A stretch of 19,222 nt of DNA from a virus (taxonomy: Duplodnaviria > Heunggongvirae > Uroviricota > Caudoviricetes): the IMG/VR virus record IMGVR_UViG_2654588181_000006, positions 1-19,222 of that record. The stretch is one strand, 5' to 3'. The notes under the pieces are model-generated. The model saw only the letters and a program-made list of their open reading frames with translations. It ran no database searches and was not told the DNA's origin. Positions 4,377 through 19,215 of the stretch are shown piece by piece. A program made the translations under genes and the position numbers. Each line of letters starts with the position of its first letter. Positions within the stretch are counted from its first letter, which is position 1.

Positions 4377-4844
4377 TCAGAAACTGCACAACCAGCAAAT
4401 TAACCTTTCGGAGTAACGCAAATGTTCGCTGGCAGACAACCCAACAGATGCACTCGCTTTGTTTTTTGCGGGCCTGACAAACGCTTTCATGTATGCGCTG
4501 TTCGTTTCTTCCAGATGCAGAATGCGCTCAATGAGGCGTTCAGTACTCATGAAATCCCTTTGCGTAATCAGACGAAGGTAGCTCTGTTTCTGCCAGCACG
4601 CCCATTCGGCAACGCACTCAAACTTACTGCAAAACCAGGAAAAAACAAAAAACGCCAGCCCGCAAAGACTCATCAGGACGGGGAAACCTACGAGAAGAAA
4701 GGAGAATACCGCAGCAATCAGTGCCCCGGCGCGCAACACGGCAGCGGCTTTATTGCTGAGTATGAAAACCATCTCTTCCAGCCAGTAGCTGTACCACAGA
4801 TGGAAAAAAATCTTCTTGTCTGCTTGCTCCATAGCAACAGGCAT
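4377..4844 (-). CDS. Hypothetical membrane protein (155 aa) encoded antisense to the early operon
   Basis: ORF 4377..4850 (minus). ATG at 4844..4842 is preceded by GGAGG with a 7-nt spacer. The protein has a clear hydrophobic hairpin (AGALIAAVFSFLLVGFPVLMSLCGLAFFVFSWF). The plus-strand ORF overlapping it (4422..5537) is low-complexity and looks spurious. Confidence 0.55.
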   Translation of the reverse strand: MPVAMEQADKKIFFHLWYSYWLEEMVFILSNKAAAVLRAGALIAAVFSFLLVGFPVLMSLCGLAFFVFSWFCSKFECVAEWACWQKQSYLRLITQRDFMSTERLIERILHLEETNSAYMKAFVRPAKNKASASVGLSASEHLRYSERLICWLCSF

Positions 4845-5025
4845 AAACAACCTCCATTGTTAATAAACGCCGCTATCCTTCGGCGCATTCCATTTTTGCG
4901 CCGCGATTATACATACTTCAGCACGCAACACAAAAACCGCTTGCCAGCGCTCGTTGAGTCGGGTTACATTTCCGCTGCACCTCATAAAACGGGTGCCGGG
5001 ATTCTCAACCCGCTGACTACACACG

Positions 5026-5057
5026 CGCACAACCGCGCCAGCGGTTTTTTTGTGCGT
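5026..5057 (+). terminator. Terminator-like hairpin with U-tract
   Basis: ACCGC(5032-5036)-gcca-GCGGT(5041-5045) followed by seven T (5045-5051); flanking CGCACA (5026-5031) and TGTGCG (5052-5057) are also complementary. Short stem, so tentative. Confidence 0.3.
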
Positions 5058-5092
5058 ACTGTATTGCCACGTCTTATTCGCGTCAGAATTAT

Positions 5093-5168
5093 GGCGGGGC
5101 GTACGGGGCCGACTTCGGTCGGGCCGGGATCGTGTGTAGCCGGTGTTGAGAACCCCGTACGTCTCGCC
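5093..5168 (+). repeat. Inverted-repeat structured element with an inner C(UUCG)G hairpin
   Basis: GGCGGGGCGTACGGGG (5093-5108) pairs with CCCCGTACGTCTCGCC (5153-5168) at 14 of 16 positions, with a perfect 9-bp core. Inner hairpin CCGAC-TTCG-GTCGG at 5109-5122. The 10-mer GATTCTCAAC occurs at 5000-5009 and 5176-5185, and inverted (9 of 10) at 5145-5154. Confidence 0.35.
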
Positions 5169-5230
5169 ACCCCGAGATTCTCAACTCTGGATGGTGAGTT
5201 TTCAAAACTTACTATACACGAGGCCACGTC

Positions 5231-5461
5231 ATGGCAAACCGCAAGCAACAGCGCGCCCGCGCTGAGCGTATTCACATCCGCAGCGAAATCAACCGCAGAC
5301 TTTTTCGCGCAACACGCGTCGCGCAAATCATGCACATCAATATGTTGCATGAGCGCAGCCACGCACTATCAAACATTTATTCCGCCTCTGTTTTCAGCTA
5401 TCTGGCGGATGATCTGCACGAGCTTCAACAGCTCATCCAGCAGCAAAACAAACTCCATTAA
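5231..5461 (+). CDS. Hypothetical small basic protein (76 aa)
   Basis: ATG 5231 preceded by GAGG (5220-5223). N-terminus MANRKQQRARAERIHIRSEINRR is strongly basic. Lies immediately downstream of the structured region. Confidence 0.45.
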   Translation: MANRKQQRARAERIHIRSEINRRLFRATRVAQIMHINMLHERSHALSNIYSASVFSYLADDLHELQQLIQQQNKLH

Positions 5462-5533
5462 TTCCTGTTCCGGGCCTTTCCTGCACCTTGCGGCGGGAGG
5501 CCTTCGCACATCTGTAACAAGAGGATTGCCGCA

Positions 5534-5899
5534 ATGATTCTCGCCAACGACTTTCTTGAATACCTGCTCAACACAGAGCGTGATCTTGCCGCTCGCGTGC
5601 GTGATCGTTATGACATGTACCTGAAATCCCTGCCTGTACTGCAGCTCGCTGACGGAAAGATTGTTATTGATGGTCGCTACATGATTGACAGCCACGAGGG
5701 AAATTACAGGCTTTACCGCATTGAAGGTGGCACCCCGTCCGTTATTGGCATTTACCAGCGCCCATCCTCTGCAATCGTCGATGTGATTGCCGACAGCATC
5801 CGCATCACACATCGCCATGCCGACACAGAAGACACCGTGCTGGAAATTCAGCGGCTGGCTACAGTCTGCCGCGACACCCTGAATGGCATGACGAAGTAA
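5534..5899 (+). CDS. Hypothetical protein (121 aa) immediately upstream of gene A
   Basis: ATG 5534 preceded by AGAGGA; stop 7 nt before the gpA start. Confidence 0.6.
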   Translation: MILANDFLEYLLNTERDLAARVRDRYDMYLKSLPVLQLADGKIVIDGRYMIDSHEGNYRLYRIEGGTPSVIGIYQRPSSAIVDVIADSIRITHRHADTEDTVLEIQRLATVCRDTLNGMTK

Positions 5900-5905
5900 A
5901 TCACT

Positions 5906-8728
5906 ATGACGGCAGAGTACATCAGGGACTGGCAACAACCGCGCCACGCAGTGGGGCGTGAAGGAACGGGGATCCCCGCTCCTGAATCCGCGCTTTCCTC
6001 CTGGCTGGATGCCTACCGGGCTGAGAACGAGCGCCGCCAGGAAATGGCTGATGCGGCGTTCTCCGCCACACCGCTGGGCAACCTGATTAATAAAAGCCTG
6101 GACGCACAGGAAAAACAGGACAAAACCATCACACTGGCAGGAGACGCCAGAAAACAGGCACGCGGCGCGGTGGATGAAGCCATGGCCTCGCTGCGCCTGC
6201 TGCCGTCCTATCTGCGCGATCCGCTTATTCGCCACCTCTCCTTCCTGCGCAAAAAACAGGAAGCCGATCGCCGGAAAGGCAAAAAGAGCTGGCAGGCGGA
6301 ACGCTATGCACGCGGAACCCTGCGCAAAATATTCGAACGTCTGGATAGCACTGACGGACGCTGGCTGACACCGGGTTATCGCTCCCTTGCCGGACGCGAA
6401 CGCCTGGACGATTTGCTTTACCTGCCGCAGCTCAACAAACACCAGATACAGACGCTGGCCACCATGACGGCGGCGATGTTCAGCAGCACCTTCGAAAAAC
6501 TCTGCGATGGCTTTGGCGCGACCGATGGCGAGCTGACCATGGATGTAACCCTGAAGGCGTATCAGATGCTGGCCCGCATGGCGTTACACCTGCACGCCAT
6601 GCCTCCACATTATGACGCACTGACGACAGACAAAGACCGGAGGAACGAACCGGACACGGAGCTGCTGCCGGGCGCAATCCTTCGCCTGACCTGTGCGGAA
6701 TGGTGGAAACGCAAACTGTGGCTGTTACGTTGCGAGTGGAGAGAAGAACAACTCCGCGCCGCCTGTCTGGTTTCCAGAAAAACATCACCCTATCTGAGCC
6801 AGGACGCGTTAAGCGAGTTTCGCGCACAGCGCGAGAAAACACGCGATTTCCTGAAAAGTTTCATGCTGGAAAATGAAGACGGGTTCACGATTGATCTCGA
6901 GACAGTGTATTACGCGGGAGTAAGTAACCCGGTTCACCGTAAGGCAGAAATGATGGCCACCATGAAGGGGCTGGAACTTCTGGCCGAAGCCCGTGGCGAC
7001 AAAGCGGTGTTTCTGACTGTCACCTGCCCGTCAAAATACCACGCCACAACAGAGAACGGTCATCCGAATCCCAAATGGAACGGGGCCACCATGCGCGACT
7101 CCAGCGATTACCTGGTTAACACGTTTTTTGCAGCGGTCCGCAAGAAACTGAACCGCAACGGCCTGCGCTGGTATGGCATCCGCACGGTGGAGCCTCACCA
7201 TGACGGCACCGTGCACTGGCATATGATGGTCTTTGCTCATCCGGAAGAAATCGACACCATTGTGTCCCACACCCGCGATATTGCCATTCAGGAAGATCGT
7301 CACGAGCTGGGTGATGATATTACCCCACGCTTTAAGGCAGAGTACGTCGACGGTTCGAAAGGTACGCCGACCAGCTACATCGCCACCTACATCGGAAAGA
7401 ACCTGGACAGCCGCGCCGTGGGTGGCATTGACCCGAAAACAAGCAAGCCACGCGTTGATCACGAAACCGGAAAATCAATGGCCGAGAGCGTGGAACGCGC
7501 CATCGGCTGGGCGCGCCTTCACCGCGTCCGCCAGTTCCAGTTCTTTGGTATCCCCTCCCGTCAGGTATGGCGTGAACTCCGCCGCCTTGCCAGTCAGATG
7601 GCCCGCAACCCGGAAGGTCCACAACGTCTGGAAAATGACGCAATGGATGCGGTACTCGCTGCCGCTGATGCCGGGTGTTTTGCCACCTACATTGAGAAAC
7701 AGGGTGGCGTACTTGTTCCACGCAAGGATTACCTGATTCGCACCGCCTACGACCTCGCAGAAGAGCTGAACGATTACGGCGAGCAAAGCGTACAGATTTA
7801 CGGGATCTGGTCGCCACAAATCGGGGAATCTTCCCGCGTGTGCACGCACCCGGATAACTGGAAGCTGGTAAGACGTAAACCGGAAGCGGAAGACAGCGCC
7901 CGCGAAAATGGTTTTGACCTTCAGGGCGGCCCTGCCGCCCCTTGGACTCGTGGCAATAACTGTCCCCGTGTACAGGAAACGGACAACAACGGGACAGAAC
8001 AGCCGGAAGAACGGCCAGCACCGTGGCCGCAGCTCCCTGACGGCGTTGAAGTGAACGAATGGATGCGCTCACTGAAACGGCACGAACGCCGGGCGCTGAC
8101 GCGTTCGCTTCGTGACAAACAGGCAAAAAACAGCAGTGATGAAATGCAGAGCTGGACACAGAGCCGCAAACAGCAGCGGCCTTTGCCTGATAACCACGAA
8201 TTACTCGCTAAAGAATGGCGGGAGTCTGCTGAATCTCTCGGCCTGCATATCGGTGAACAACAGATGCAGCACCTGTTACGGGGCGGCAGTCTGTGCGTTG
8301 ACGGCAGCATCATTGCACCGCAGGGATTTGAAATTGTACGCAAACCGGATACCCGCCCGGACAGCCGAATCACGCAGCTCTGGCAGCGCCTGAGCCGTAA
8401 TCATGGCATAAGCAGCACGGAGATCCGCCATAACCCGGTCGCCAGCTATCTGGCACAGCTGGGGGCATCAGACCCTGAAGCCGCCGCACGCCTGGCATCC
8501 ACACTTCAGCAGGACCAGAACACCATGAAAACACCCGTTACCGTGCTTTCTGACATGCTGCGCGCCATCCGCGACGCAGAGCACGCACAGAGAATCAGTG
8601 AAACCACTGAACGCGCCAGCCGCAAAGCAGACCTGCTGCGGGGTAGCCTGACCAGTGGAAACAAAAAACAGACAGAAACGGGACTCACGAATCCCGTAAA
8701 TGAGCAAAAAACGCGCAGCGATATATGA
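5906..8728 (+). CDS. A: Rolling-circle replication initiation endonuclease (P2 gpA family)
   Basis: 940-aa ORF. HUH motif VHWHMMV at 7211-7231 and paired tyrosines in SYIATYIGKN (Y-x3-Y, 7376-7399) match the HUH relaxase/Rep catalytic arrangement of P2 A. Position after the cox-proximal early genes fits P2 synteny. Longer than the roughly 760 aa I recall for P2 A. Confidence 0.9.
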   Translation: MTAEYIRDWQQPRHAVGREGTGIPAPESALSSWLDAYRAENERRQEMADAAFSATPLGNLINKSLDAQEKQDKTITLAGDARKQARGAVDEAMASLRLLPSYLRDPLIRHLSFLRKKQEADRRKGKKSWQAERYARGTLRKIFERLDSTDGRWLTPGYRSLAGRERLDDLLYLPQLNKHQIQTLATMTAAMFSSTFEKLCDGFGATDGELTMDVTLKAYQMLARMALHLHAMPPHYDALTTDKDRRNEPDTELLPGAILRLTCAEWWKRKLWLLRCEWREEQLRAACLVSRKTSPYLSQDALSEFRAQREKTRDFLKSFMLENEDGFTIDLETVYYAGVSNPVHRKAEMMATMKGLELLAEARGDKAVFLTVTCPSKYHATTENGHPNPKWNGATMRDSSDYLVNTFFAAVRKKLNRNGLRWYGIRTVEPHHDGTVHWHMMVFAHPEEIDTIVSHTRDIAIQEDRHELGDDITPRFKAEYVDGSKGTPTSYIATYIGKNLDSRAVGGIDPKTSKPRVDHETGKSMAESVERAIGWARLHRVRQFQFFGIPSRQVWRELRRLASQMARNPEGPQRLENDAMDAVLAAADAGCFATYIEKQGGVLVPRKDYLIRTAYDLAEELNDYGEQSVQIYGIWSPQIGESSRVCTHPDNWKLVRRKPEAEDSARENGFDLQGGPAAPWTRGNNCPRVQETDNNGTEQPEERPAPWPQLPDGVEVNEWMRSLKRHERRALTRSLRDKQAKNSSDEMQSWTQSRKQQRPLPDNHELLAKEWRESAESLGLHIGEQQMQHLLRGGSLCVDGSIIAPQGFEIVRKPDTRPDSRITQLWQRLSRNHGISSTEIRHNPVASYLAQLGASDPEAAARLASTLQQDQNTMKTPVTVLSDMLRAIRDAEHAQRISETTERASRKADLLRGSLTSGNKKQTETGLTNPVNEQKTRSDI

Positions 8729-8773
8729 AGCGCGCACAAAACAGGCAAAAACGGGATTTCAGAATCCCGTAAA
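8665..8773 (+). repeat. Two 36-bp direct repeats, each with an internal hairpin
   Basis: aaaacagacagaaacgggactcacgaatcccgtaaa (8665-8700) versus aaaacaggcaaaaacgggatttcagaatcccgtaaa (8738-8773), 30 of 36 identical. Each contains the inverted repeat ACGGGA...TCCCGT; most mismatches fall in the loop. The first copy overlaps the 3' end of gene A, the second lies in the intergenic region upstream of the ParM-like gene. Confidence 0.5.
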
Positions 8774-8804
8774 CGATTAATTAATCAACATAAGGAAAAG
8801 CGAC

Positions 8805-9737
8805 ATGAAAATTTGTATCGACGACGGCTCCACCAACATCAAGCTGGCATGGACTGAGAACGGCGAACGCCGCAACGCCATCAGCCCGAACAGCTTCAAG
8901 TCGGAATGGTCTGCGCCGTTCGGCGGCACGCAGCCCGCGAACTACATGCTTGATGGCGTGCGCTATGGTTTTGATCCGGTCAGCGATCGCTTTGTCCAGA
9001 CGACCGACACGCAATACCAGTACAGCGATGTGAATGTCATTGCCATTCATCACGCGCTGGTCAAATCAGGCATCACGCCACAGGAGGTGGATGTGGTTGT
9101 CACCCTGCCACTGAGCGAGTATTTCGACACAAACGCACAGCCGGACATGGCCAACATCAACCGCAAAAAAGCGAACGTTATGCGCCCGGTGGAGTACCAG
9201 AACGGCGAAGCATTCACTATCCGTAACGTGCGGGTTATGCCTGAATCCATTCCGGCTGGCTTTAAGGCACTGGCTGACATGAGTCCGTTTGAATCCCTGC
9301 TGATTGTGGATTTGGGCGGAACCACGCTGGATGTGGCAAAGGTTCAGGGGCAACTGGCAGGTATCAGCCAGGTGTTTTGCGATCCACACGTAGGCGTTTC
9401 TCTGATGGCCGATGCCGTACTGTCGGTGATGGCCACTAACGGTATGCGCACCAGTCACCACATCGCCAATACCATTATCGAACATCGCCATGATGAAGCC
9501 TGGCTGCGCCAGCACATCCACAATGACGCGCATTACGCCAGCCTGATGGCGGTTATTCGTGAAAAGGAAGAAACACTGAAACAACGCGTGATCCGCGCGC
9601 TGGCGGGTTTTTCGGGTTACGGGAAGTTACAGGAACTGATGCCACTGGCGATCGTATGGCCTCCGCCACCGGGCGGGAGCTGGCCGCAACAACAGGGACC
9701 AGCGCCGGAGGCAGCGGAGCCGGGACCACGGGTGTGA
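8805..9737 (+). CDS. ParM/StbA-like actin-family ATPase, 3' end apparently truncated or replaced
   Basis: N-terminus MKICIDDGSTNIKLAW closely matches the ParM start (MLVFIDDGSTNIKLQW, from memory), with further blocks SPNSFK, QYSDVNV..HHAL, PESIPAGF, DLGGTT, IIEHRHD and LAGFSGYGK. After about residue 270 (near nt 9626) the reading frame turns proline-rich (LAIVWPPPPGGSWPQQQGPAPEAAEPGPRV) and overlaps the convergent tape-measure ORF, so the actin-fold C-terminus is probably missing. Confidence 0.65.
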   Translation: MKICIDDGSTNIKLAWTENGERRNAISPNSFKSEWSAPFGGTQPANYMLDGVRYGFDPVSDRFVQTTDTQYQYSDVNVIAIHHALVKSGITPQEVDVVVTLPLSEYFDTNAQPDMANINRKKANVMRPVEYQNGEAFTIRNVRVMPESIPAGFKALADMSPFESLLIVDLGGTTLDVAKVQGQLAGISQVFCDPHVGVSLMADAVLSVMATNGMRTSHHIANTIIEHRHDEAWLRQHIHNDAHYASLMAVIREKEETLKQRVIRALAGFSGYGKLQELMPLAIVWPPPPGGSWPQQQGPAPEAAEPGPRV

Positions 9738-12267
9738 TATTAATTGCGGGGGCAGGCTTACTGACCTGTGCAATCTTTCGCTCCTGCCACTCCCCACGAA
9801 CAGCAAGTGCGCGGGGCAGGTTCTTAAAGACAATATCGCCGGGGCCAATACGTTTTTTTGTCTCATCAACCAGCTTACCTGTGTTATCAGCAATTTTGCT
9901 GAGTCTGCGTAGCGTCCCGGTATTGCTGTCTGTGAGTGGTTTGTTGTCTTTGGGTTTATCACCCCCGGTGCCATTGCCATTTTCCACAGGCTTCGGCGGA
10001 TTGATTTTCGCCAGGTCCCCCTGAAGCAAGGCAACCTTGTCCTGAAGAATGGCCGCACGCTGTGCGTCTTCGATTTTCTTGCGCGCCCTTTCCGCTTCAT
10101 CCGGAAGGACGCCAAGTTTTTCAAGTATCCACGCCAGCGTATCCAGTAGCATTTTTGCAGGTGTCAGAACAAGCTGTAACGCACCGCCAAGAACGTTACC
10201 GAATATCTCGCCAGCACTGGTACATTTATCCAGCGTTTCCTTGCTGGACTCCATCGGTGACAGCAGCGATTTAAACCAGTTAAACACCTGACTGATCCCG
10301 CTTCCGATTGCGTCAAAAACAGGGCCAAACCGTTCAAAGGTTTCGCGCAACGGAGCCAGCCGTTCCATAATCCCGCTGAACACCCCGGCATAAAACGCCT
10401 TAATGGGTTCCCAGTATTTCCAGATGAGAACCGCCGCAGCCACAAACGCAGCAGCAATCAATCCGACCGGACTGAACAGCGCCCCGATAGCACCCCCCAG
10501 CAAAGAAACGGAACCCGTCACCATTCCCCATAGTGCTGGCAGGACCCTGACAGCATTCATTGATCCGGTCAGGAGAGAAAAACCAAGACGCAGTTTTGCC
10601 AGCGGGCCAGCAAGCACACCAATAGCCAGCGACAACGAGCCAACCGTTGCAGTCATTGCCAGCAACGCACCGCCTGCTATCAGTAGCTGGCGCGTCAGTA
10701 CCGGATGGGCCTGCGCCAGCGAGGTGATTTTTTCAAGCACCCGCGTGAGCCACTGCGTGACAGAACGCAGCGGACCGTCAACCAGATCACTGATGCGAAT
10801 ACGAAGACCTTCCCATGCGCTGTCGAGATTTTTCAGGTCCCCATCAAGATTATCGGCCATTACTTTTGCAACGCGATCGGCCTCTCCCCTTGCCCCCTGC
10901 AATTCTCTGGTCAGTTTTTGCAGCTCTCCTGAACCAGCCGCCGCAACAAGCGTCTGCAAACCAACGAACGCCTCTTCTCCGGCGATGTCCTTGAAGAAGG
11001 AAACCTGGTCCACCTGTCCGTATTTTTGTGTCGCCTTATAGAGATCAAGCAGCACATCCTCCATCGGGCGCATTTTGCCTCTGGCGTCAGCAACTGACAC
11101 TCCCAGCTCTTTCAGCGCATCAGCCGCAGCTTTTGGCGGTGATGCAAGGCGGGACAGACTTGCGCGCATGGCCGTACCAGCATCGCTTCCACGAAGGCCA
11201 TTATTGGCAAGCATCCCGGCCATGGCTGCCGCTTCTTCAAGACTGATACCAAGTTTTGCGGCAACCGGACCGGTATACTTCATGGTTTCGCCCAGCGCGC
11301 GTAAATCAGTATTGGTCCGGGTGAATGCCGCTGTCAGCGTATCGCCAACCCGGTCCATTTGATCGGCTGTCAGGTTGAACTGTGTGAGGATATTGGAGCC
11401 TATATCAGCCGTCTCGCCGAGTTCGACGCCACCTGCCAGCGCCATATTAAGAACACCGGGCAATGCGGCCTGAATGGCCTGCGGAGTAAAACCAGCCATT
11501 GCAAGAAATGCCTGTCCACTGGCGGCATCGCCTGCGGTGAACTGCGTTTCAGAGCCAAGTTTTAACGCCTGCTCACGCAGCGCCTTAAACTGCGGGCTGT
11601 TCTGGTCGATTCGCGTCAGTGCCTGAACGCGGGACATCTCTTTGCCGAACCCGATCGCAGGCTGCAAAAAACGCCCGGCAGCATAGCCGCCCGCCGCTGC
11701 CGCACCAATTGCCAGCGCACCACCTGTTTTCAGTTTTCCCGCTGTTTCCTGCGCGCGCGAATACCGCTCACGCGCCCGCGTTACACGCGCAAGCGCCTGC
11801 CGTTCGCGTTCAAGCTGGTTGTTGTACTGTTCGGTGCGTCTGATGGCCTGCTGGATGGTGTTATCGCTGCCTGTCAGGGAAATGCCGTGGCGTTTCAGCT
11901 CTCCGCCAAGTTCCCGCATTTTCTGAATTTCCCGTGTGCGCGATTCATTCAGGCGTTCAAGCCGGGTGCTTAACTGCTGCATCAGCTTTTGTTGTTTTTC
12001 GCTGAGCACTGTACCCGTGCGTTGTAACTGATTAAGGGCATTAAGCTGGCGTCGTGCTTTCAATATGCCAGCATCCGCTTTACTGACAGCGTCACGGGCG
12101 CGCTCAAATGAACGCGCCTGACGCTCGAGATTTTTGATCGCCCCCTGCGTTCGCTGGATGGAGTCACCAAACTGCCCCATCAGGCGGCAGGCGTTTTCGG
12201 CAGGCCGGGTCAGCCTGTCAACGGCGCTGAAAGCGACCCGGATATCAAGAGTCTTCATTATCTGCAT
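9553..12267 (-). CDS. T: Tail tape measure protein (P2 gpT-like)
   Basis: 904-aa ORF: N-terminal coiled-coil region, Gly/Ala-rich hydrophobic central segments, and position directly downstream of the E/E' chaperone pair with a 23-nt overlap. The last 70 or so residues are P/A/V-rich and read antisense into the ParM-like gene, so the native 3' end is uncertain. Confidence 0.85.
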   Translation of the reverse strand: MQIMKTLDIRVAFSAVDRLTRPAENACRLMGQFGDSIQRTQGAIKNLERQARSFERARDAVSKADAGILKARRQLNALNQLQRTGTVLSEKQQKLMQQLSTRLERLNESRTREIQKMRELGGELKRHGISLTGSDNTIQQAIRRTEQYNNQLERERQALARVTRARERYSRAQETAGKLKTGGALAIGAAAAGGYAAGRFLQPAIGFGKEMSRVQALTRIDQNSPQFKALREQALKLGSETQFTAGDAASGQAFLAMAGFTPQAIQAALPGVLNMALAGGVELGETADIGSNILTQFNLTADQMDRVGDTLTAAFTRTNTDLRALGETMKYTGPVAAKLGISLEEAAAMAGMLANNGLRGSDAGTAMRASLSRLASPPKAAADALKELGVSVADARGKMRPMEDVLLDLYKATQKYGQVDQVSFFKDIAGEEAFVGLQTLVAAAGSGELQKLTRELQGARGEADRVAKVMADNLDGDLKNLDSAWEGLRIRISDLVDGPLRSVTQWLTRVLEKITSLAQAHPVLTRQLLIAGGALLAMTATVGSLSLAIGVLAGPLAKLRLGFSLLTGSMNAVRVLPALWGMVTGSVSLLGGAIGALFSPVGLIAAAFVAAAVLIWKYWEPIKAFYAGVFSGIMERLAPLRETFERFGPVFDAIGSGISQVFNWFKSLLSPMESSKETLDKCTSAGEIFGNVLGGALQLVLTPAKMLLDTLAWILEKLGVLPDEAERARKKIEDAQRAAILQDKVALLQGDLAKINPPKPVENGNGTGGDKPKDNKPLTDSNTGTLRRLSKIADNTGKLVDETKKRIGPGDIVFKNLPRALAVRGEWQERKIAQVSKPAPAINITPVVPAPLPPALVPVVAASSRPVAEAIRSPVASVPVTSRNPKNPPARGSRVVSVFLPFHE

Positions 12268-12783
12268 TCCCGCTGCGAAGTGCCGCCCGCTCGCGCCAGC
12301 TAACCACTTCGCCGGGCGTCATCATGAAGATTTCGGCGGGCGACCAGTTAAAAATGGCGGCAATATCCGCCACCAGATCTTCGATGTGCTCAAAGCACAC
12401 CAGGGTGATTACGCTGCCGTCTCCTGCACGCTCTTCGCGCCAGAGTCTGGCTCGCTCATAAAATTTACAGCCACAGCGCACAACTGAATAAAATCGCGTG
12501 ACGACATTTTTTTAATCATCACTTCATCCAGTCGTGGCGAGGTCACGCGAGGCAACAGCGTAAACATGGTATCCGCTTTCAGATTCAGCACATCAGACAG
12601 CGACAGACCACGCAGGGATCCAGCCTGCTCAATAGCCCCGGTGATCTCCACATACGTGATTTTTTCGCCACCACGCTCAATTGGTCGGGTCAGTTTTACG
12701 CCACGTTCGACAGCCATATCCTCGCCTGCCGTCACATCATCCGCCACGGTGTTATTCCGGGTTTCAGTATCGATGTCTTTCAT
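12245..12783 (-). CDS. Tail assembly chaperone E+E' (programmed -1 frameshift product)
   Basis: An ORF in the -1 frame (12245..12481) overlaps the 3' part of E. That frame opens just after a run of seven A on the minus strand (plus 12507-12513), a plausible slippery site inside E codons ATT-AAA-AAA-ATG. The arrangement mirrors lambda G/GT and P2 E/E'. Confidence 0.6.
12409..12783 (-). CDS. E: Tail assembly chaperone gpE-like
   Basis: 124-aa ORF; ATG 12783..12781 preceded by AAGGAG with a 7-nt spacer. Located between FII and T and carries the overlapping E' frame. Confidence 0.7.
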   Translation of the reverse strand: MKDIDTETRNNTVADDVTAGEDMAVERGVKLTRPIERGGEKITYVEITGAIEQAGSLRGLSLSDVLNLKADTMFTLLPRVTSPRLDEVMIKKMSSRDFIQLCAVAVNFMSEPDSGAKSVQETAA

Positions 12784-12838
12784 CAGTTGTCTCCTTTTCA
12801 GTCAGAGGCGACGCACTGCGCCGCCTGCATATTACTTA

Positions 12839-13351
12839 TCAGCCAAGCCCAAGCGCGGAACGGATACGGTCAGGCACAATGTCCTTGCCGTCCTTCCGGT
12901 AGATGTGGTTCAACAGGTCGATTTCCCACAGCGGGCGATCGTTAACGCTCAGCTTGTAGTAGGTGTTTTTGACAGCGTAAGTGTGTGATGTGGCTTCGCC
13001 CTGTTTGGCTTCCCCCATATCAATTTCCGTCACACGCCCGCGCATCTCGATTTCATACAGATCACTTTCTGCATCGGTGTAGTATTCACCCGCAAAACGC
13101 AGCAACGTGCCGTCAATCGTGCCGCCATATTTAAGGAACAGCTCACGAACTGCGCCCCCCATGACAAAACTCGCATCAAGCGCAGAATCATCAAGACCGA
13201 GGTCGATACTCACCGCCCCCATCATGCCACCGCCACGATAGCTTTCAGTTTTGCGCGTCAGTTTAGGTGGAGTGACGGACGTCACCTTACCCACTTCGTT
13301 TTCACCATTCACAAACAGCGTAAAAAAGCGAAGATGTTTTGGTACAGCCAT
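12839..13351 (-). CDS. FII: Tail tube protein (P2 gpFII-like)
   Basis: 170-aa ORF. Segments TPPKLTRKTESYRGGGMMGAV and YYKLSVNDRPLWEIDLLN match the FII pattern I recall. Start overlaps the FI stop (TGATG). Confidence 0.85.
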   Translation of the reverse strand: MAVPKHLRFFTLFVNGENEVGKVTSVTPPKLTRKTESYRGGGMMGAVSIDLGLDDSALDASFVMGGAVRELFLKYGGTIDGTLLRFAGEYYTDAESDLYEIEMRGRVTEIDMGEAKQGEATSHTYAVKNTYYKLSVNDRPLWEIDLLNHIYRKDGKDIVPDRIRSALGLG

Positions 13352-14535
13352 CAGACACCTCCCAACACCGCAAATGCGGGATCAAAGTATTCATCAGTAA
13401 ACGTCTGGTAAAGCTCCATATCTTCCAGCGGAGGAACGGGCGTATATTTGTAGCGAATACGCACACGCCCCTGACGTAAATCCGTGGTGCTGTTATCCAC
13501 CACGTCATACCAGCACGACGCGCCAATCAGTTTCCCGGCAGTAACCAGTGAATCCAGTTTTGCCCTGATGGCACTGATAACATCCTTCACGTTCGCAGGC
13601 GTCAGTGGACTGTCGATGGTTTCAAACTGCGCTTCCGCAATTGAATCAGCCAGCACCTGTGCGGTTCGGGTATACACCTCAAAGATGTAGGCGTTCGTTT
13701 CCGGTGTGCGGTTGCCCCAGAAGCGGAACCCGTTGCGACGAATAATGGTCGTGATTTCTTTGTTGTTGAGGCTGTTGGCATCGCTGTCTTCGGCCTGCAA
13801 CGACCAGAACACATGCCTCGACATCCCCAGCACATTTTTAACCGGAACGTTGGACAGTGATTTATGCCAGCCCTGCTCATGGTCAATGTACGCACGAAGG
13901 CCGCACGCATAGGCAGGCGCGGGGAACGTTTCGTTTTTGCCACTTTTCGGGTTGTAGGCGATGAAGTCCGGCCATAAGAGCATCACCTCACGTTCGTTGA
14001 ATTTCTGGCGGTAGGTAATCGCCTCAGCCATCGTGTTACAGCCGTAACATGAGGCATACACAAACGCGCGCAGTTTACCTGCGATCACGCACAGGGATTT
14101 TGTTACAGCCTCCGTGTCCAGCTCCGGCGCGGCCAGAATACGCGGACGGTATCCGATGCTTTCATCCTGCTCTGCAACAAGCAGCGCAAACATCCCCGTA
14201 TAGCTGCCGTCATCCTCAGAACCACCGATAACCAGTTGATCCTGCGTCTTTCCGTCTTCTTCTTTGTGTTCAGCCACGCGAACGACGATCACCTTTGTGC
14301 TCACCTGGTCTGCAATGGCCTTAAGCGCACGATAAAGCGTCCCCGTTGTCCCGCATTTTCCCAGCACGTCATTGACGCGGGTCAGCAGTGTGGGCTTGTT
14401 CAGCGGGAACAGCTTCGCGTCCGCATCATCCGCCGTTGCCACGATACCGATAACGCTGGAATCAACATCGTTAATCGCTGTTACCAGGTCGGTATTTTCC
14501 GTAACACGGGCACCATGAAAACGAGTTTCACTCAT
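13351..14535 (-). CDS. FI: Contractile tail sheath protein (P2 gpFI-like)
   Basis: 394-aa ORF with conserved sheath blocks FPLNKP, KLRAFVYASCYGC, YRQKFNEREVMLLWPDF, IDHEQGWHKSLSNV, IRRNGFRFWGNRT, YTRTAQVLADSIAEA and YKYTPVPPLE. Confidence 0.9.
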   Translation of the reverse strand: MSETRFHGARVTENTDLVTAINDVDSSVIGIVATADDADAKLFPLNKPTLLTRVNDVLGKCGTTGTLYRALKAIADQVSTKVIVVRVAEHKEEDGKTQDQLVIGGSEDDGSYTGMFALLVAEQDESIGYRPRILAAPELDTEAVTKSLCVIAGKLRAFVYASCYGCNTMAEAITYRQKFNEREVMLLWPDFIAYNPKSGKNETFPAPAYACGLRAYIDHEQGWHKSLSNVPVKNVLGMSRHVFWSLQAEDSDANSLNNKEITTIIRRNGFRFWGNRTPETNAYIFEVYTRTAQVLADSIAEAQFETIDSPLTPANVKDVISAIRAKLDSLVTAGKLIGASCWYDVVDNSTTDLRQGRVRIRYKYTPVPPLEDMELYQTFTDEYFDPAFAVLGGV

Positions 14536-14692
14536 AGCTTCAGCCCCTTGTATCCGTTAAATGATTCGGCAACAATCATCACCCACCACGCGCGTAATCT
14601 CACCCCTGCGCCGTTCTCCCGACCCGGCGACAACAAAAAGCAGTAACCCCCTCCGCACGCACATGCGACCATGTCGCACAGGGAGGGAACAG

Positions 14693-15802
14693 ATGACCGA
14701 CACCACCATGCAATTGCTCAGTCAGGGCACAGACCCCGTGAAAATGCCGGATTTTGATATTCTCGCGGAGGGTAAAACGCTGTCAGGCGTGGCAGAGCGC
14801 CTGATGAGCCTGTCACTGACCGACAACCGGGGATTTGAGGCGGACCAGCTCGCCGTCACGCTGGATGATGCGGATGGTCAGTTGCAGCTACCGCCACGGG
14901 GCGCGCGCCTGACGGTTCTCATTGGCTGGAAAGGAGAACCGCTGACAGAAAAAGGCACTTACATTGTTGATGAAATCGCTCACGAAGGACCGCCGGACAG
15001 GCTGACTGTTTCAGCCAGAAGCGCAGATTTTCGGGATGAATTTAACGTTAAACGTGAGGTGTCCTGGCATGATGTGACCGTTGAACGCGTGGTATCCGCC
15101 ATCGCTCATCGGTACGGCCTGAAACCGCAAATCAGCGAAATGCTGATGGATATCGAAATCGACCACGCCGACCAGACTGAAGAAAGCGACATGTCCTTCC
15201 TTACGCGCATGGCGGAAATGCTGGGCGCAATCACCACGGTAAAAAGCGGTAATCTGTTATTCATCATGCCCGGTGGTGGCGTGAACGCACAGGGTCAGCC
15301 GTTGCCATCGTTTGCCATCACACGCAGCAGCGGCGATCGCCATCAGTTCCGCATTGCTGACCGCGAGGCGTATACGGGTGTACGCGCCTACTGGCTTGAT
15401 CTTAATTACGGGAAAAAGAAAAAAGTCAGCGTGAAACGCCGCAAACCGCCAAAACCCAAAAAGGAGAAAAGTAGCAGCCGTGAAGGTGATTATATGGAAG
15501 GCGCGGAAGGCAATGTGTTTGTGTTACGCAAGACTTATCAAAACGAGCAGGCAGCAAGACGCGCAGCGGCGGCAAAGTGGCAGCAGCTACAACGCGGAGC
15601 CGCAGCGTTCTCCATCACACTGGCACGTGGACGCGCAGAACTCTACCCCGAAATGCATGGCACGGTAACAGGATTTAAAAGCGAGATTGATAATCAGGAC
15701 TGGATTATTGCGAAAGCCGAGCACACCATTGATAACAGCGGCTTTACCACGCAGCTTGAGCTTGAAGCAAAAATCCCGGAGTGGATAGCAGAAACAGAGT
15801 AA
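14693..15802 (+). CDS. D: Tail protein D (phage late control gene D family)
   Basis: ORF 14561..15802; start chosen at ATG 14693 preceded by GGGAGGGA (14681-14688). Blocks LTDNRGFEADQL, GWKGEPL, ARSADFR, SWHD, DQTEESDMSFL, YTGVRAYW, LARGRAELYPE and GFTTQLELE fit the gpD family. It is on the opposite strand from FI-FII-E-T, unlike canonical P2. Confidence 0.8.
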   Translation: MTDTTMQLLSQGTDPVKMPDFDILAEGKTLSGVAERLMSLSLTDNRGFEADQLAVTLDDADGQLQLPPRGARLTVLIGWKGEPLTEKGTYIVDEIAHEGPPDRLTVSARSADFRDEFNVKREVSWHDVTVERVVSAIAHRYGLKPQISEMLMDIEIDHADQTEESDMSFLTRMAEMLGAITTVKSGNLLFIMPGGGVNAQGQPLPSFAITRSSGDRHQFRIADREAYTGVRAYWLDLNYGKKKKVSVKRRKPPKPKKEKSSSREGDYMEGAEGNVFVLRKTYQNEQAARRAAAAKWQQLQRGAAAFSITLARGRAELYPEMHGTVTGFKSEIDNQDWIIAKAEHTIDNSGFTTQLELEAKIPEWIAETE

Positions 15803-15890
15803 ACAACTTAAATGTATAAGCTAAGATATTAGCTGGAACGCTTGCTGCACAGAGGCAGCCCCAATTTGACAATCACTTCTATGACAGAAG

Positions 15891-15913
15891 CGCTACCTTA
15901 TTATAAGGTAGCG
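15891..15913. repeat. 23-bp perfect palindrome
   Basis: CGCTACCTTAT-T-ATAAGGTAGCG is perfectly self-complementary around a central T. It sits 89 bp downstream of the D stop, at the edge of the AT-rich island. Confidence 0.5.
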
Positions 15914-16054
15914 TAGATTGAGCAATCTATATCGTGCTAAAAACACATGTTGAATATTTAGATATCGATGTGATATTAACGTTATATCAAGAGAGTTAAT
16001 GTTCTACCGAACCTTATTATCAGAGTTTATTATAGATAAACAATTACTATCAAT

Positions 16055-16113
16055 AAGAGCCACGCACGCAATATTTTGAGGCTGTGGCTCTTATCTGTGA
16101 ACCTACGAGGTTC
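16055..16113 (-). terminator. Tandem stem-loops immediately downstream of the ATPase gene
   Basis: GAACC-tacga-GGTTC at 16099-16113 starts 2 nt after the ATPase stop; AAGAGCCAC (16055-16063) pairs with GTGGCTCTT (16084-16092). No clean U-tract, so terminator function is tentative. Confidence 0.35.
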
Positions 16114-16114
16114 G

Positions 16115-18253
16115 TCAGGCAATCTCGCGACCAACATCGTCATTTGCCGCAAAAGCTGATAGTAACAAATTATCACACTCAGTTATGACATATTCTGGAA
16201 TGAGATCGAATCTAGCCGGATCCAGCTGGCAGATAAACTCATTTTCGATATGATAGGTTTCATTAATAAATTTCTGAATTACAGAGTTTGTATGCTCAAT
16301 ACCCATTAACCTGAAAACTTGCAATTTTTCGTAGCTACTTTTGCAACTGAAATAAAGCGTGGTGAGAAAGTTTTCGCAGGTGATTTTTGCTAGCTCTACC
16401 TTATAGTTGAAATCTGGAATATGATTAATTATTTCGTGACAACCTAAATTTTCACTAACTTCTGACATTAACGAATATTCCCCGTCGATCTTCGCCAAGC
16501 GCCTATCCTCCAGAAATTCCCGCTTATGAAAAAGATTTGAAAGCACTTGATAGGCATCCCCCAGATCATCAAGGATTTCGTAATGACGGCGAAGATATAT
16601 CAACTTAATAATATCGTCACTCACAGACTGTAGAGCCGATGTGCAGATTTGAGCAAAAGTTTTGATATCCGAATTTGAAATTGGTTGCTCTGTAATAACA
16701 CCATTACTGTAGCGGAGATAAGCTGCTGAAACTTGATTATCAAATTGCTGCCTAACAGCGCGAATAGTATCGATGATTGGCTCAACATCATGCGTCAACA
16801 TCAGCACTGTTTTACTCTTAAGACAATCAGATGGCTCTCTACGAAAAAGCATTTCAAGAATCGCAAACTTCTTATTTTTATCGAACGAGGAAATGGGATC
16901 ATCCAAAATAATCAGACTTGGTTTTCTAGAAAGACATTCATACATGAAGAGCACGAGGGCAAACGCATTTCTTTCACCGTAACTTAGATGTTGGCTACCA
17001 CCAGTGACGACATCTGTATGATCTACATGATAGAGTTGTAGTCGTGGCTGTGCATCGTCTGTTATCCGCACACGGTAACGATAACCAGCATAGGATAGAA
17101 AATCATTGATATTTTTTTGGTGCTTTATAACGAGCTGGCGTACTTTATTCCGCTGCTGATTCAGTTTACCCTGAAGTGGTCCAGCGCTTGCAATTAGATC
17201 AGTCAGAGAAGTATTGAGTGCATCAACAATACGTGTGGTTTCTTCTGATTGAAGTTCAGTAAAGAAGTCCAGATTCAACTTGTAAGAGGCGAGTTTAGCA
17301 GCTACATCGTCTCCTTCTGTGAAGCTAAATCCGGAAAGCGTTTTAAGCACGGTAAGTTTATCTATTAGATCATCTGTTTGAGATTTAAGGGTGATAAGAT
17401 ATGTTTCATGCTGCTGCTCAAGACCATTAGGAAGGGTTGTGATTTCTTTAAGACGATCACGGGCAGAGTCAGTAAGGTAAATTCCTAAACGCTGAATGAC
17501 ATCAACAAGCTCCATCAAATTTTTGATGACAGCTTGGTCATATTCTACTCCAACCTGTTGAATTCGTTGTTGTTGTTGTTCGGTAGATTCACTACTGCAA
17601 TAAGGACAGTACTCACCCGCAAGTTCACCAAACTCTGTTAGCCCTTTTGTCTGCCAAGCAATCCACTGCACACTTTTATTACTAGTTATCATGTTTCTGT
17701 ACGGTTCAAGTGCGGCAGGGATATGAAGAAGTTTATTACCTCCAGCAAGCGCTTTCATACCCTTTGTACTTTTACTAAGAGCAGATGCTGCAGTGACTTT
17801 AAATGCACTGGATAAAACAGTGAGATCGCTCAATAGGGTTTCCAGTTGTGTATGCTCGGTAAACACCTGACGGATCGTCGAAATAATTAATTCTATTTCA
17901 CTCTCTGTTCTGATATACGCGTCAGTTTTGATTAATATATCGAAACTGTTGGCTACAAGCTCATCCTGACGGAATGTGAACTGGCTAACATACTCCTCAT
18001 TGAAACACATTATATTATCTAGTTGTTCCATTCCGGTCACAGAGGGCGCAACATTATCGGGGTTATTTGCCCTGAATTTAAAAGGAAGTAATTCTGCCAA
18101 ACAAGCTTCCTGCCCAGGCAAACTGAACTGCATCGCCCGAGCAATAGTGCTTTTCCCTGTACCATTCGGCGCAAAACGAATATTCAACTTTTTTTCGGCT
18201 AGAGAAACAGTAGCAAAGTCAATGCTATTACAGTAACTAATTTCAATTTCCAT
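16115..18253 (-). CDS. ABC/Rad50-type ATPase with CxxC zinc hook and C-terminal putative nuclease domain (RloC/PrrC-like architecture); candidate anti-phage defence protein
   Basis: 712-aa ORF; ATG 18253..18251 preceded by AAGAAGG with a 7-nt spacer. Walker A APNGTGKST (18146-18172); about 380 aa of predicted coiled coil containing EYCPYCSS (CxxC, 17597-17608); signature-like LSYGERN (16967-16987); Walker B LIILDD (16898-16915); H-loop LTHD; then a roughly 225-aa C-terminal domain with a candidate Rx5H motif RLMGIEH (16292-16312). The gene is visibly AT-rich and opposite in orientation to the flanking D and ogr. Confidence 0.8.
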   Translation of the reverse strand: MEIEISYCNSIDFATVSLAEKKLNIRFAPNGTGKSTIARAMQFSLPGQEACLAELLPFKFRANNPDNVAPSVTGMEQLDNIMCFNEEYVSQFTFRQDELVANSFDILIKTDAYIRTESEIELIISTIRQVFTEHTQLETLLSDLTVLSSAFKVTAASALSKSTKGMKALAGGNKLLHIPAALEPYRNMITSNKSVQWIAWQTKGLTEFGELAGEYCPYCSSESTEQQQQRIQQVGVEYDQAVIKNLMELVDVIQRLGIYLTDSARDRLKEITTLPNGLEQQHETYLITLKSQTDDLIDKLTVLKTLSGFSFTEGDDVAAKLASYKLNLDFFTELQSEETTRIVDALNTSLTDLIASAGPLQGKLNQQRNKVRQLVIKHQKNINDFLSYAGYRYRVRITDDAQPRLQLYHVDHTDVVTGGSQHLSYGERNAFALVLFMYECLSRKPSLIILDDPISSFDKNKKFAILEMLFRREPSDCLKSKTVLMLTHDVEPIIDTIRAVRQQFDNQVSAAYLRYSNGVITEQPISNSDIKTFAQICTSALQSVSDDIIKLIYLRRHYEILDDLGDAYQVLSNLFHKREFLEDRRLAKIDGEYSLMSEVSENLGCHEIINHIPDFNYKVELAKITCENFLTTLYFSCKSSYEKLQVFRLMGIEHTNSVIQKFINETYHIENEFICQLDPARFDLIPEYVITECDNLLLSAFAANDDVGREIA

Positions 18254-18425
18254 TTTTTTGCCTTCTTATTACGTTAGTAAGGCAATCACAATACCAACAA
18301 TTCATTAATAAGTTTACTGCTGGATTCAAAACAAACCAACTTGTGTCACAATATTTAAATTCTATACAGCTTTTCCGTTTCTCCCCCCTTATGAATGAGG
18401 GTTCTATTGCAAGCCTTTCGAGCAT
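18243..18425 (-). CDS. Possible small Cys-rich upstream ORF (60 aa) overlapping the ATPase start
   Basis: The ORF ends 11 nt inside the ATPase gene (stop complement of 18243-18245). Contains several Cys (CWYCDC). RBS weak (AGGAA, 10-nt spacer). Could be a leader peptide or spurious. Confidence 0.25.
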   Translation of the reverse strand: MLERLAIEPSFIRGEKRKSCIEFKYCDTSWFVLNPAVNLLMNCWYCDCLTNVIRRQKNGN

Positions 18426-18501
18426 AAAGCATCAGTTCCTAGTACATATCGTGGCTTTTCTTACAATTGAGCGCATGGCCTGTTTTTCCATTTATTTGTA
18501 T

Positions 18502-18531
18502 GTGACATAAGCAAAATCACTTTTTTATAGT
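18502..18531 (+). promoter_or_regulatory. Candidate sigma70 promoter for ogr
   Basis: GTGACA (18502-18507), 18-bp spacer, TATAGT (18526-18531), about 100 bp upstream of the ogr ATG. Confidence 0.3.
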
Positions 18532-18630
18532 AAAAATGTACATCCTCCTCTCGACAAAAGCTGTCTGGCAGTTGGAGCTTGAGTCAAGACAACTTAAAAT
18601 AGCGACAGCACCACGTTAAGGGAGGTCGCT

Positions 18631-18891
18631 ATGTTCCGTTGTCCGCTTTGTGGCGCATCTGCCCGTATCCGCACAAGTCGCCCTGAAAATGATTCGAATA
18701 CCGTGCGGCAAAAATATTACCAGTGTAACAACCTGGAATGCGGCGTATGCTTCTCAACACTGGAAGCCTTCCATAAATTCACATCGAAACACGCCTCCAG
18801 CGCTCACTCTTCGGAGAGTATCCCTTGGCATGATCTGCCAGCTTCACACAGAGGAAACAATCAGATGAGTTTGCCCTTACCTCAGAATTAA
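18631..18891 (+). CDS. ogr: Ogr/Delta-type zinc-finger late transcription activator
   Basis: N-terminus MFRCPLCGASARIRTSR...YYQCNNLECGV has the C-x2-C-x(24)-C-x4-C spacing and resembles P2 Ogr (MFHCPLCQHAAHARTSR...YHQCQNVNC, from memory). ATG 18631 preceded by AAGGGAGG. Confidence 0.8.
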   Translation: MFRCPLCGASARIRTSRPENDSNTVRQKYYQCNNLECGVCFSTLEAFHKFTSKHASSAHSSESIPWHDLPASHRGNNQMSLPLPQN

Positions 18892-18951
18892 CAGGCAGAA
18901 TTGCCGGAGTAACAAAAAAGCGATAGATTACGCGCGGGTGCCTTTCGGCTG

Positions 18952-19215
18952 ATGGTCGGAGGGAATACCCGAAGGCCAGATGTGGAAAGGCCCCGGAAAA
19001 CATCTCTGTTTAACCGAGGCCCTAACCGCATTACCTTGACAAGTGAAAGGTTAGCGCCTCTCCGGAAAAGGAGCAAGTGCTATGTCGCAAAAATCGCTTA
19101 CGGCCATCACGTTCTGCGTGACGGCAATCCTCATCATCTGGATGTTGCACGGTTCGCTGTGCGAAATACGGATGAGCTTCTGGGGAGCGGAGTTTGCGGC
19201 GTTCTTACAGTGTAA
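18952..19215 (+). CDS. mok-like overlapping reading frame
   Basis: An 87-codon frame starts about 130 nt upstream of the hok-like gene and ends 7 nt before its stop, in a different frame. This mirrors the mok/hok overlap of hok/sok loci. Its true start is not determined. Confidence 0.35.
   Translation: MVGGNTRRPDVERPRKTSLFNRGPNRITLTSERLAPLRKRSKCYVAKIAYGHHVLRDGNPHHLDVARFAVRNTDELLGSGVCGVLTV

Follow-up and report, generated by a model that had tools for sequence, protein, structure and literature searches.

The window analysed here, the whole of a 19,222-bp stretch of DNA, very probably represents almost all of a defective prophage, 19.5 kb long and belonging to the P88 group (Peduoviridae, Xuanwuvirus), residing at the btuC-ihfA site of E. 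coli, and combines a divergent tail gene layout native to that group with one deletion of about 18.6 kb. The features concerned are as follows, with coordinates referring to the window.

59-157: attL, a 99-bp direct repeat that matches its second copy, attR (L005 20681-20779), at 99%; attR lies about 260 bp past the window end, just before ihfA
596-1570, minus strand: tyrosine integrase, of a type unlike that of P88 (44% amino acid identity) and the same as in the E. coli 1303 prophage
1620-1928, minus strand: C-type HTH repressor
2025-2303, plus strand: cox-like ORF, divergent from the C repressor gene
5906-8728, plus strand: full-length gpA replication endonuclease of 940 aa, sharing 97.7% identity with P88 gpA
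8805-9737, plus strand: truncated ParM fusion ORF, with native residues 1-273 of 319 followed by 37 novel residues from the T antisense strand
9553-12258, minus strand: truncated tape measure T, with native residues 1 to ~881 of 935 followed by 20 novel residues from the parM antisense strand
9615-9623: deletion junction, a single copy of GGTTACGGG
12245-12400, minus strand: E' (PF06528 GpE) frame, overlapping the T start
12409-12783, minus strand: gpE tail assembly chaperone
12839-13351, minus strand: FII tail tube, full length (170 aa)
13351-14535, minus strand: FI tail sheath, full length (394 aa)
14536-14692: native divergent FI-D spacer, 157 bp
14693-15802, plus strand: full-length gpD (PF05954) of 369 aa, sharing 98% identity with P88 D
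15803-18630: insertion of low-GC cargo DNA between D and ogr, with the direct repeat ACAACTTAAA on either side
16115-18253, minus strand: 712-aa AAA_13 ATPase, matching the PADLOC candidate defence family PDC-S06
18631-18891, plus strand: ogr/delta zinc-finger late activator (PF04606)
19082-19222, plus strand: hok/gef-family toxin gene at the right prophage end

The element is inserted between btuC and ihfA of an E. coli draft genome, and the att flanks duplicated beside the integrase as a 99-bp direct repeat mark it as an integrated prophage. Every retained segment from 2.3 kb onward is 92-97% identical at the nucleotide level to the Xuanwuvirus phages P88 (NC_026014) and P884B11 (NC_049391), with 91.9-96.6% identity to the former and 93.9-96.1% to the latter over window positions 4928-15810 and 18590-19222. 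The likeness to P88 extends to gene order, the 157-bp FI-D spacer and the parM, gpA, E/E', D, ogr and hok genes, whereas the int/C/cox module and the att site differ from those of P88 and the window has an additional 2.8-kb D-ogr cargo. Outside parM and T, every gene shared with P88 is full length by tblastn. A full-length prophage of E. coli 1303 (NZ_CP009166, 1960.3-1996.7 kb) occupies the same btuC-ihfA site, with an integrase 99% identical to that of the window and 96-98% identity elsewhere; unlike the window, it keeps the whole 18.5-kb morphogenesis block, and TOPRIM-containing cargo separates its parR from the portal gene. For FI, FII, E, T, D and ogr, the window and the P2/186 type have homologues at 34-48% amino acid identity. 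In the E/E' region, A_AAT_TTT at 12466-12460 is a candidate -1 slippery heptamer.

In the annotated P2 record the genes run in the order FI-FII-E-E'-T-U-D-ogr, all in the same direction and within a single F operon, in agreement with the P2 synteny given in an earlier sequence-only reading of this DNA. The window departs from that synteny, and the ORF coordinates bear out the arrangement described in that reading: the minus strand carries FI, FII, E/E' and T, the plus strand carries D and ogr, and FI and D diverge across a spacer of exactly 157 bp. In the window D and ogr are not adjacent, being separated by the 2.8-kb insertion. The records of P88 and P884B11 give the order invertase, then U, T, E', E, FII and FI on the minus strand, then D on the plus strand; only the P884B11 record has an annotated ogr following D. 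The head-to-head FI/D junction is nearly base-for-base alike in the window and these two phages, occurs in 13 phage records, and the divergent layout is present in all 80 of the related IMG/VR contigs, with a spacer of 156-157 bp; it recurs in two more distant Peduoviridae lineages, represented by the Klebsiella Reipivirus ST16-OXA48phi5.4 and the Serratia phage KSP20. P88 itself is inducible, forms plaques and has been imaged by EM (PMC5285337). Since the junction is present in viable P88-group phages, in every one of these IMG/VR relatives and in distant lineages, it is ancestral to a clade of viable phages, and the divergent FI...U / D-ogr order is, judged by this distribution, native to the P88 group and not an inversion scar of the present prophage. 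While P2 thus has one co-directional operon, the P88 group has the FI...U block inverted and D-ogr as a separate divergent unit. A literature search found no paper explicitly describing the P88-type tail gene orientation.

At 14615-14632 the spacer between FI and D holds GTTGT-N12-AGA, an Ogr-box-like element read from the minus strand, and it has conserved -10-like boxes at about 14571-14580 (minus strand) and 14667-14672 (plus strand); transcription is predicted to start near 14565-14568 (minus strand) and 14679 (plus strand). The GTTGT-N12 type of late promoter box is shared by P2 and the window. The element was recognised only via alignment to the annotated P2 sites and its conservation across genera. 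A one-mismatch match in 157 bp is expected about 0.65 times, by our estimate, and is not significant alone; a scan of the window with the exact pattern TGT-N12-ACA gave no match within the spacer. Sigma-70 promoter and terminator scans of the spacer found nothing, which is expected of activator-dependent late promoters. The element is a probable Ogr box common to both putative promoters, and in this group the F operon of P2 appears as two separate, divergent late units that one central Ogr-type box serves, an arrangement analogous to the P2 pP/pO pair.

The region around 9.6 kb has another origin. Window positions 4928-9623 are co-linear with P88 4979-9674 (96.6% identity) and positions 9615-15810 with P88 28265-34441 (91.9%), so that the two P88-matching segments overlap in the window by exactly 9 bp, and a three-way alignment places the switch point at GGTTACGGG. 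This 9-mer occurs exactly twice in P88, at 9666 and 28265 on the same strand, 18.6 kb apart, and likewise twice, in the same orientation, in the full-length E. coli 1303 prophage, where the copies are 18,465 bp apart; in both, one copy lies in parM and the other in T. The window has a single copy, at the junction. P88 coordinates from about 9675 to 28264 are missing, and by tblastn the 27 P88 genes gp18-gp44, from the ParR-like gene to gpU, are gone as one contiguous block. Two copies of the repeat in the parental arrangement against one at the junction are consistent with a microhomology-mediated deletion, although the repeat does not prove the mechanism, shared 9-mers being common by chance (35 observed between the parM and T regions against about 16 expected). 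The copies of GGTTACGGG in parM and near the T 3' end recombined, most likely by RecA-independent slippage or illegitimate recombination at the microhomology, with removal of some 18.6 kb. Beyond the junction, each of the truncated ORFs, parM and T, now continues on the antisense strand of the other as far as a chance stop codon, which accounts for their convergent overlap and for the odd P/G/A-rich ParM tail. The overlap, noted earlier from the letters, is indeed 185 bp between the ParM-like ORF (8805-9737, plus strand) and T (ending at 9553, minus strand); the remark that both frames turn P/A-rich there holds, the ParM tail beyond residue 273 reading KLQELMPLAIVWPPPPGGSWPQQQGPAPEAAEPGPRV. 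The interpretation of the overlap as an inversion breakpoint fails. On the evidence of the alignments, the 9553-9800 region is a deletion junction.

This event took with it the ParR-like gene, the expected cos region and the portal, terminase, scaffold, capsid, head-completion and lysis genes, as well as those for tail completion, baseplate, fibres, the invertase and gpU. The lack of head, lysis and baseplate genes had already been pointed out and is confirmed by tblastn, as is that of gpU: queries from P88, P2 and the E. coli 1303 prophage gave nothing in the window below E=3. We infer the loss of cos with the deleted block from the ends of the linear P884B11 record; similarity to P2 cos gave no meaningful match in the window, P88 or the 1303 prophage, which is uninformative as P88 itself is without a match. 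Retained are the integrase, the C/cox switch, gpA, the sheath and tube, most of T, D, ogr, the candidate defence ATPase and hok. A full virion, lysis and packaging set is thus lacking, with gp18-gp44 missing and T and ParM truncated, and the remnant is predicted to be unable to build virions, to lyse the host for their release or to package them, in line with the earlier description of a cryptic prophage that cannot form virions.

It is very unlikely, if conceivable, that the remnant has been retained as a useful decoy, in which the Ogr of an invading P2- or P88-like phage, or the delta of a P4-like satellite, would switch on a dead-end tail set and thereby poison the tail assembly of the invader. 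The kept ogr gene and the apparently intact, bidirectional Ogr-dependent FI/D promoter could serve this role, the set so expressed being the sheath, the tube, a C-terminally scrambled tape measure and D, without gpU. If so, it would act beside the PDC-S06 ATPase, the immunity conferred by the C repressor and hok addiction.

That the reduced element is a selected functional entity of another kind, whether tailocin-like, satellite-like or a domesticated defence island keeping the sheath, tube, D and ogr, is highly improbable. The intact state of all retained genes and the presence of the candidate defence ATPase and hok would fit such a role, the FI-T-D block likewise persists in other E. coli P88-like remnants that have lost head and fibre genes, and conserved defence genes are on record for defective P2-like elements (PMC13586616). 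However, a very recent deletion would equally leave genes intact. With the baseplate, fibre and lysis genes and gpU missing and T truncated, a contractile particle should not assemble; an R-type tailocin was considered and rejected, the window having only the sheath, tube, chaperones, truncated T and D, without V, W, J, I, H, G, R, S, U, X, holin and endolysin. No satellite-type genes were found among the Pfam and PHROG matches of the window, and the privacy of the junction to one strain gives no sign of spread or selection.

Two assemblies carry the junction. NCBI GCA_900103855.1 (in a 243-kb contig) matches the full 19,222 bases of the window at 100% identity, and the Logan assembly of SRR4218895 (in a 96-kb contig) is 100% identical over its 11,285-base overlap with the window. 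It is on these assemblies that the junction rests, and both may derive from the same isolate. The junction was absent from all 5,426 complete E. coli genomes, from the GTDB representative genomes, from IMG/VR and from the JGI metagenomes, and so is known, across all collections searched, from one strain only. This uniqueness to a single source would fit an assembly artefact, with a complete P88-like prophage present and 18.6 kb skipped by the assembler, a possibility also raised in the sequence-only reading. Such an artefact is nevertheless hard to credit: two different pipelines place the junction inside long contigs, the flanks are the expected btuC and ihfA, and a repeat of 9 bp falls far below the k-mer or overlap length of any assembler. 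With the k=31 that Logan uses, reads must span the junction. Since no gene other than parM and T is truncated and a single strain carries the junction, the deletion looks recent and private to that strain.

The proposal made from the letters alone was a cryptic prophage with at least one inversion, with breakpoints near 9626-9800 and 14536-14692, plus large deletions. This would mean a P2/186-type prophage whose FI-T block was inverted within its own lineage and which lost gpU and the head, lysis and baseplate genes in several separate deletions. Compared to P2 the block is truly inverted and gpU is missing, but the proposal is extremely improbable in the light of P88. One of its two breakpoints is the FI/D junction, whose sequence viable P88-group phages and all 80 relatives share almost to the base, and the other joins parM to T directly and co-linearly with P88. 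The deletions reduce to one between 9-bp direct repeats, which accounts for all missing genes including gpU, since gpU lies directly downstream of T in P88-group phages and falls within the single deleted block. Short inverted repeats, which had been suggested as a check on the two junctions, were searched for in the window and in P88; only short, chance-level pairs were found, none of them joining 9553-9800 to 14536-14692. A family of intact phages with the same gene order, named in that reading as the finding that would make the arrangement native, does exist for the FI/D layout, while the T/ParM junction is a deletion scar. In annotation, the divergent FI...U / D-ogr order is thus best treated as normal P88-group Peduoviridae architecture, which a P2 template should not score as a rearrangement.

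Serine invertases strongly disfavour deletion, the repeats at the junction are direct 9-mers within coding sequence, and the junction flanks score at most 8 against the gix consensus compared to 22-24 for the true crossover sites of P88. An origin of the junction at pseudo-sites of the phage's own Gin/Cin-type invertase, instead of by microhomology slippage, was therefore rejected and is barely credible, even though the invertase gene lies within the deleted block, beside gpU, and the central deletion of a defective P88-like copy in Citrobacter rodentium abuts its invertase gene (PMC6456863).

The single deletion favoured here has parallels in the group. Of 5426 complete E. coli genomes, 1403, or roughly one in four, contain detectable P88-group DNA. 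CRPr20 of C. rodentium, a defective P88-like/PhiSM-like prophage, has lost the central morphogenesis block and kept both ends (PMC6456863), as have P88-group remnants in E. coli GF31 and XJ34. The breakpoints of these elements differ from that of the window and arose independently, and none has the parM/T junction. The importance of the present case is small, as one further instance of prophage decay via what is probably a single microhomology-mediated deletion.

The cargo between D and ogr is shared with the E. coli 1303 prophage, in which the same AAA ATPase cargo is found at 99.9% identity. The D-ogr intergenic slot behaves as a variable cargo/defence hotspot in the P88 group.

ORF mapping and family searches identify a P2-like element in the window, with the following features.

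596-1570, minus strand: int
beside int, minus strand: C-type repressor gene
plus strand: cox-like gene, then the early operon with gpA as its last gene
4977-5051, 5087-5174 and 5231-5461, plus strand: isrK, C4 antisense RNA and PF25738 region (Rfam and family matches)
5906-8728, plus strand: gpA
8805-9737, plus strand: ParM-like ORF
9553-12258, minus strand: T (tape measure)
12245-12400, minus strand: E' (tail assembly chaperone)
12409-12783, minus strand: E (tail assembly chaperone)
12839-13351, minus strand: FII (tube)
13351-14535, minus strand: FI (sheath)
14693-15802, plus strand: D
16115-18253, minus strand: 712-aa ORF in the D-ogr interval
18631-18891, plus strand: ogr
19082-19222, plus strand: hok

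The coordinates of the sequence-only reading, its 157-bp FI-D spacer and its 185-bp ParM/T overlap are all exact on this map, and the canonical P2 gene order that it used agrees with the annotated P2 record. gpU and every head, lysis and baseplate gene are absent, as it had claimed. It had further proposed that the FI-T block was inverted in this prophage, with a breakpoint at FI/D, but the FI/D half of that arrangement is found in intact phages. The best megablast matches among phage records are phages of the P88 group (genus Xuanwuvirus), and in both P88 (NC_026014) and P884B11 (NC_049391) the annotated order is H, G, the invertible G'/H' and the invertase, followed by U, T, E', E, FII and FI on the minus strand and D on the plus strand; ogr is annotated 3' of D in P884B11, and hok in both. 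Their FI-D spacer is likewise 157 bp and almost identical to that of the window. P88 is mitomycin C-inducible and plaque-forming, with a one-step growth curve and EM images (PMC5285337), and PhiSM, a related phage of Citrobacter rodentium, is active too (PMC6456863). The head-to-head FI/D arrangement is present in 13 phage records (at least 80% of the junction-spanning query covered), in all 80 related IMG/VR contigs (spacers of 156-157 bp) and, at ~70% protein identity, in Klebsiella ST16-OXA48phi5.4 (Reipivirus) and Serratia KSP20. Because viable P88-group phages and wider relatives share it, the FI-U inversion relative to P2 is an old trait of a viable Peduoviridae clade and not decay in this prophage. 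For the FI/D half of its claim, this is the outcome that the sequence-only reading had itself named as refuting. Public phage records already show the P88-group order of genes. A search for inverted repeats at the two proposed breakpoints, suggested by the same reading, found none pairing 9553-9800 with 14536-14692.

The ParM/T convergence, the other proposed inversion breakpoint, is instead a deletion scar (9615-9623), both sides being co-linear with P88. Window positions 4928-9623 match P88 4979-9674 and 9615-15810 match P88 28265-34441, the two blastn alignments sharing 9 bp of the window. A three-way alignment places the switch point between the P88 segments at GGTTACGGG, a 9-mer with exactly two copies in P88 (9666 and 28265, same strand) and one in the window. 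The best comparator, a full-length prophage of ~36 kb in E. coli 1303 that shares the btuC-ihfA site, the integrase (99%) and the cargo ATPase (99.9%) with the window prophage, has both copies, 18,465 bp apart. With all 52 annotated CDS listed for P88 as tblastn queries, gp18 (ParR-like) to gp44 (gpU) are missing from the window as a single block, ParM keeps its first 273 of 319 residues and T its first ~881 of 935, while the remaining shared genes are all full length. A single deletion therefore explains the loss of gpU and all capsid, lysis, baseplate and fibre genes, for which large deletions had been invoked. Past the junction, the ParM frame runs 37 codons through the antisense of T (KLQELMPLAIVWPPPPGGSWPQQQGPAPEAAEPGPRV) and the T frame 20 codons through that of parM, which fully explains the ORF overlap and the odd composition on the ParM side. 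The P/A-rich turn described for both frames at ~9626-9800 holds for ParM, as T-antisense codons; the T frame there is native T sequence.

Collapse of a 9-bp direct repeat to one copy is a classical signature of microhomology-mediated deletion, and we infer such an event here, in which slippage or illegitimate recombination at the repeat would have left one copy. As 9-mers common to both junction regions are plentiful (35 observed, ~16 expected), the deletion site was opportunistic. The P88-type invertase was rejected as the agent: the junction flanks reach at most 8 against the gix consensus, the true crossover sites 22-24, the latter lying in the inverted repeat 23822-23886/26862-26926 of P88.

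That the junction is an assembly artefact is highly improbable, since it occurs within long contigs of two assemblies from different pipelines, and a 9-bp repeat is too short to mislead assemblers using k-mers of at least 31. A locus from GCA_900103855.1 (FNIS01000004.1, 243 kb) contains the window at 1197-20418 with 100% identity, and a 96-kb contig of the Logan assembly of SRR4218895 is also identical to it from window position 7938 on. The prophage is integrated between btuC and ihfA, with a 99-bp att repeat at 59-157 and again ~260 bp past the window end; part of the window is matched in 5,426/5,426 complete E. coli genomes, which identifies the flank as E. coli. The junction was not found in these genomes, 1,403 of which match at least one half of the junction-spanning query, nor in GTDB representatives, IMG/VR or JGI metagenomes. 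A recent deletion is indicated by the private distribution of the junction and by the intact state of every gene that remains. The E. coli P88-like remnants GF31 (scaffold to fibre lost) and XJ34 (terminase to fibre lost) have central deletions unlike that of the window, and C. rodentium CRPr20 has yet another (PMC6456863). Loss of the middle segment is a recurrent, ordinary event in P88-group prophages, and this allele is new but trivial. In E. coli 1303, GF31 and XJ34, the PGAP annotation of gpD consists of a shortened CDS ('VgrG/Pvc8 family') and a small pseudogene, a split that may be an annotation artefact.

The element both behaves as and is a defective P88-group prophage, falling short of full membership only in lacking a complete virion module. 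With the portal, terminase, capsid, lysis, baseplate, fibre and gpU genes gone and the T C-terminus scrambled, it should be unable to make particles, in line with the earlier suggestion that it cannot form virions alone. cos was probably within the deleted block, as the linear P884B11 record ends just outside the portal gene; comparison with P2 cos gave no meaningful match in P88, the E. coli 1303 prophage or the window. The last 46 residues of ParM are gone, as is the ParR-like protein that partners it. The retention of int, C/cox, gpA, ogr, a candidate defence gene and hok suggests that immunity, addiction, defence and possibly excision and replication may persist. It is very unlikely that the remnant is selectively kept, its Ogr-responsive dead-end tail set disturbing superinfecting relatives. 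A tailocin identity is rejected (baseplate, fibres, lysis genes and gpU are all missing), and no satellite hallmarks were found in the element.

Alignment of the FI-D spacers of the window, P88, Reipivirus and KSP20 shows poor conservation (63% mean column identity) outside one invariant block, GACAACAA. In FI sense this reads GTTGT-N12-AGA in the window (14632-14615) and Reipivirus, and GTTGT-N12-ACA in KSP20; the three annotated activator sites of P2 (GTTGT-N12-CCA twice, GTTGT-N12-CAA) align with it. The GTTGT half of this Ogr-box-like element is invariant across Xuanwuvirus, Reipivirus and Serratia KSP20. Its centre (14623.5) lies ~56-59 bp from a -10-like box on either side, both conserved:

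~14571-14580, minus strand: -10-like box
14667-14672, plus strand: -10-like box GACCAT

The arrangement mirrors the P2 pP/pO pair, with one common site 55 bp from each start. One central Ogr box would drive pF (FI...U) and a separate pD (D, towards ogr). From the conservation and position of the block, we give a single box common to both divergent promoters an even chance; the TGT-N12-ACA match with one mismatch is not significant alone.

Between D and ogr lies a 2.8-kb low-GC insertion (15803-18630; GC 0.37-0.41) flanked by the direct repeat ACAACTTAAA. Its 712-aa ORF is an AAA_13 ATPase and matches PDC-S06, a candidate defence family in PADLOC (E 2e-277). The slot is variable: empty (40-42 bp) in 42 of 69 IMG/VR relatives, with inserts of 14 different sizes in the other 27, and holding PIN-domain or other genes in E. 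coli genomes. The P2 hotspot literature consulted names the cos-proximal gpA-gpQ, Z/fun, several minor hotspots and an unspecified one 'within the tail genes', and does not explicitly name D-ogr. The cos-proximal hotspot of the E. coli 1303 prophage (NZ_CP009166, 1960.3-1996.7 kb) carries a TOPRIM-domain gene pair. A sigma-70-like promoter (GTGACA-18-TATAGT, 18502-18531, plus strand, 10/12 matches) at the right cargo edge, ~100 nt upstream of ogr, may mean that the insertion supplies or replaces the ogr promoter.

In the early operon, Rfam matches to isrK (61.8 bits) and C4 antisense RNA (76.8 bits) lie just upstream of the 'Derepression' ORF (PF25738). This module looks like a P1/P4-style antisense-RNA-controlled antirepressor within a P2-like phage, and may be related to the mitomycin C inducibility of P88. 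A 371-aa ORF (4422-5537) with weak Ash/regulator matches overlaps these RNAs and as a whole is probably not a real gene. The E. coli 1303 prophage shares with the window an ORF of ~131 aa (190-585, minus strand) that lies between attL and the integrase and has no Pfam match; in P2-like prophages, the att-int interval has been reported to be a minor defence hotspot (PMC13586616). Finally, a candidate -1 frameshift heptamer, A_AAT_TTT (12460-12466, minus strand), lies inside gpE ~17 codons ahead of its stop and would fuse E to the E' frame (PF06528) overlapping the T start, consistent with the conserved tail-chaperone frameshift.
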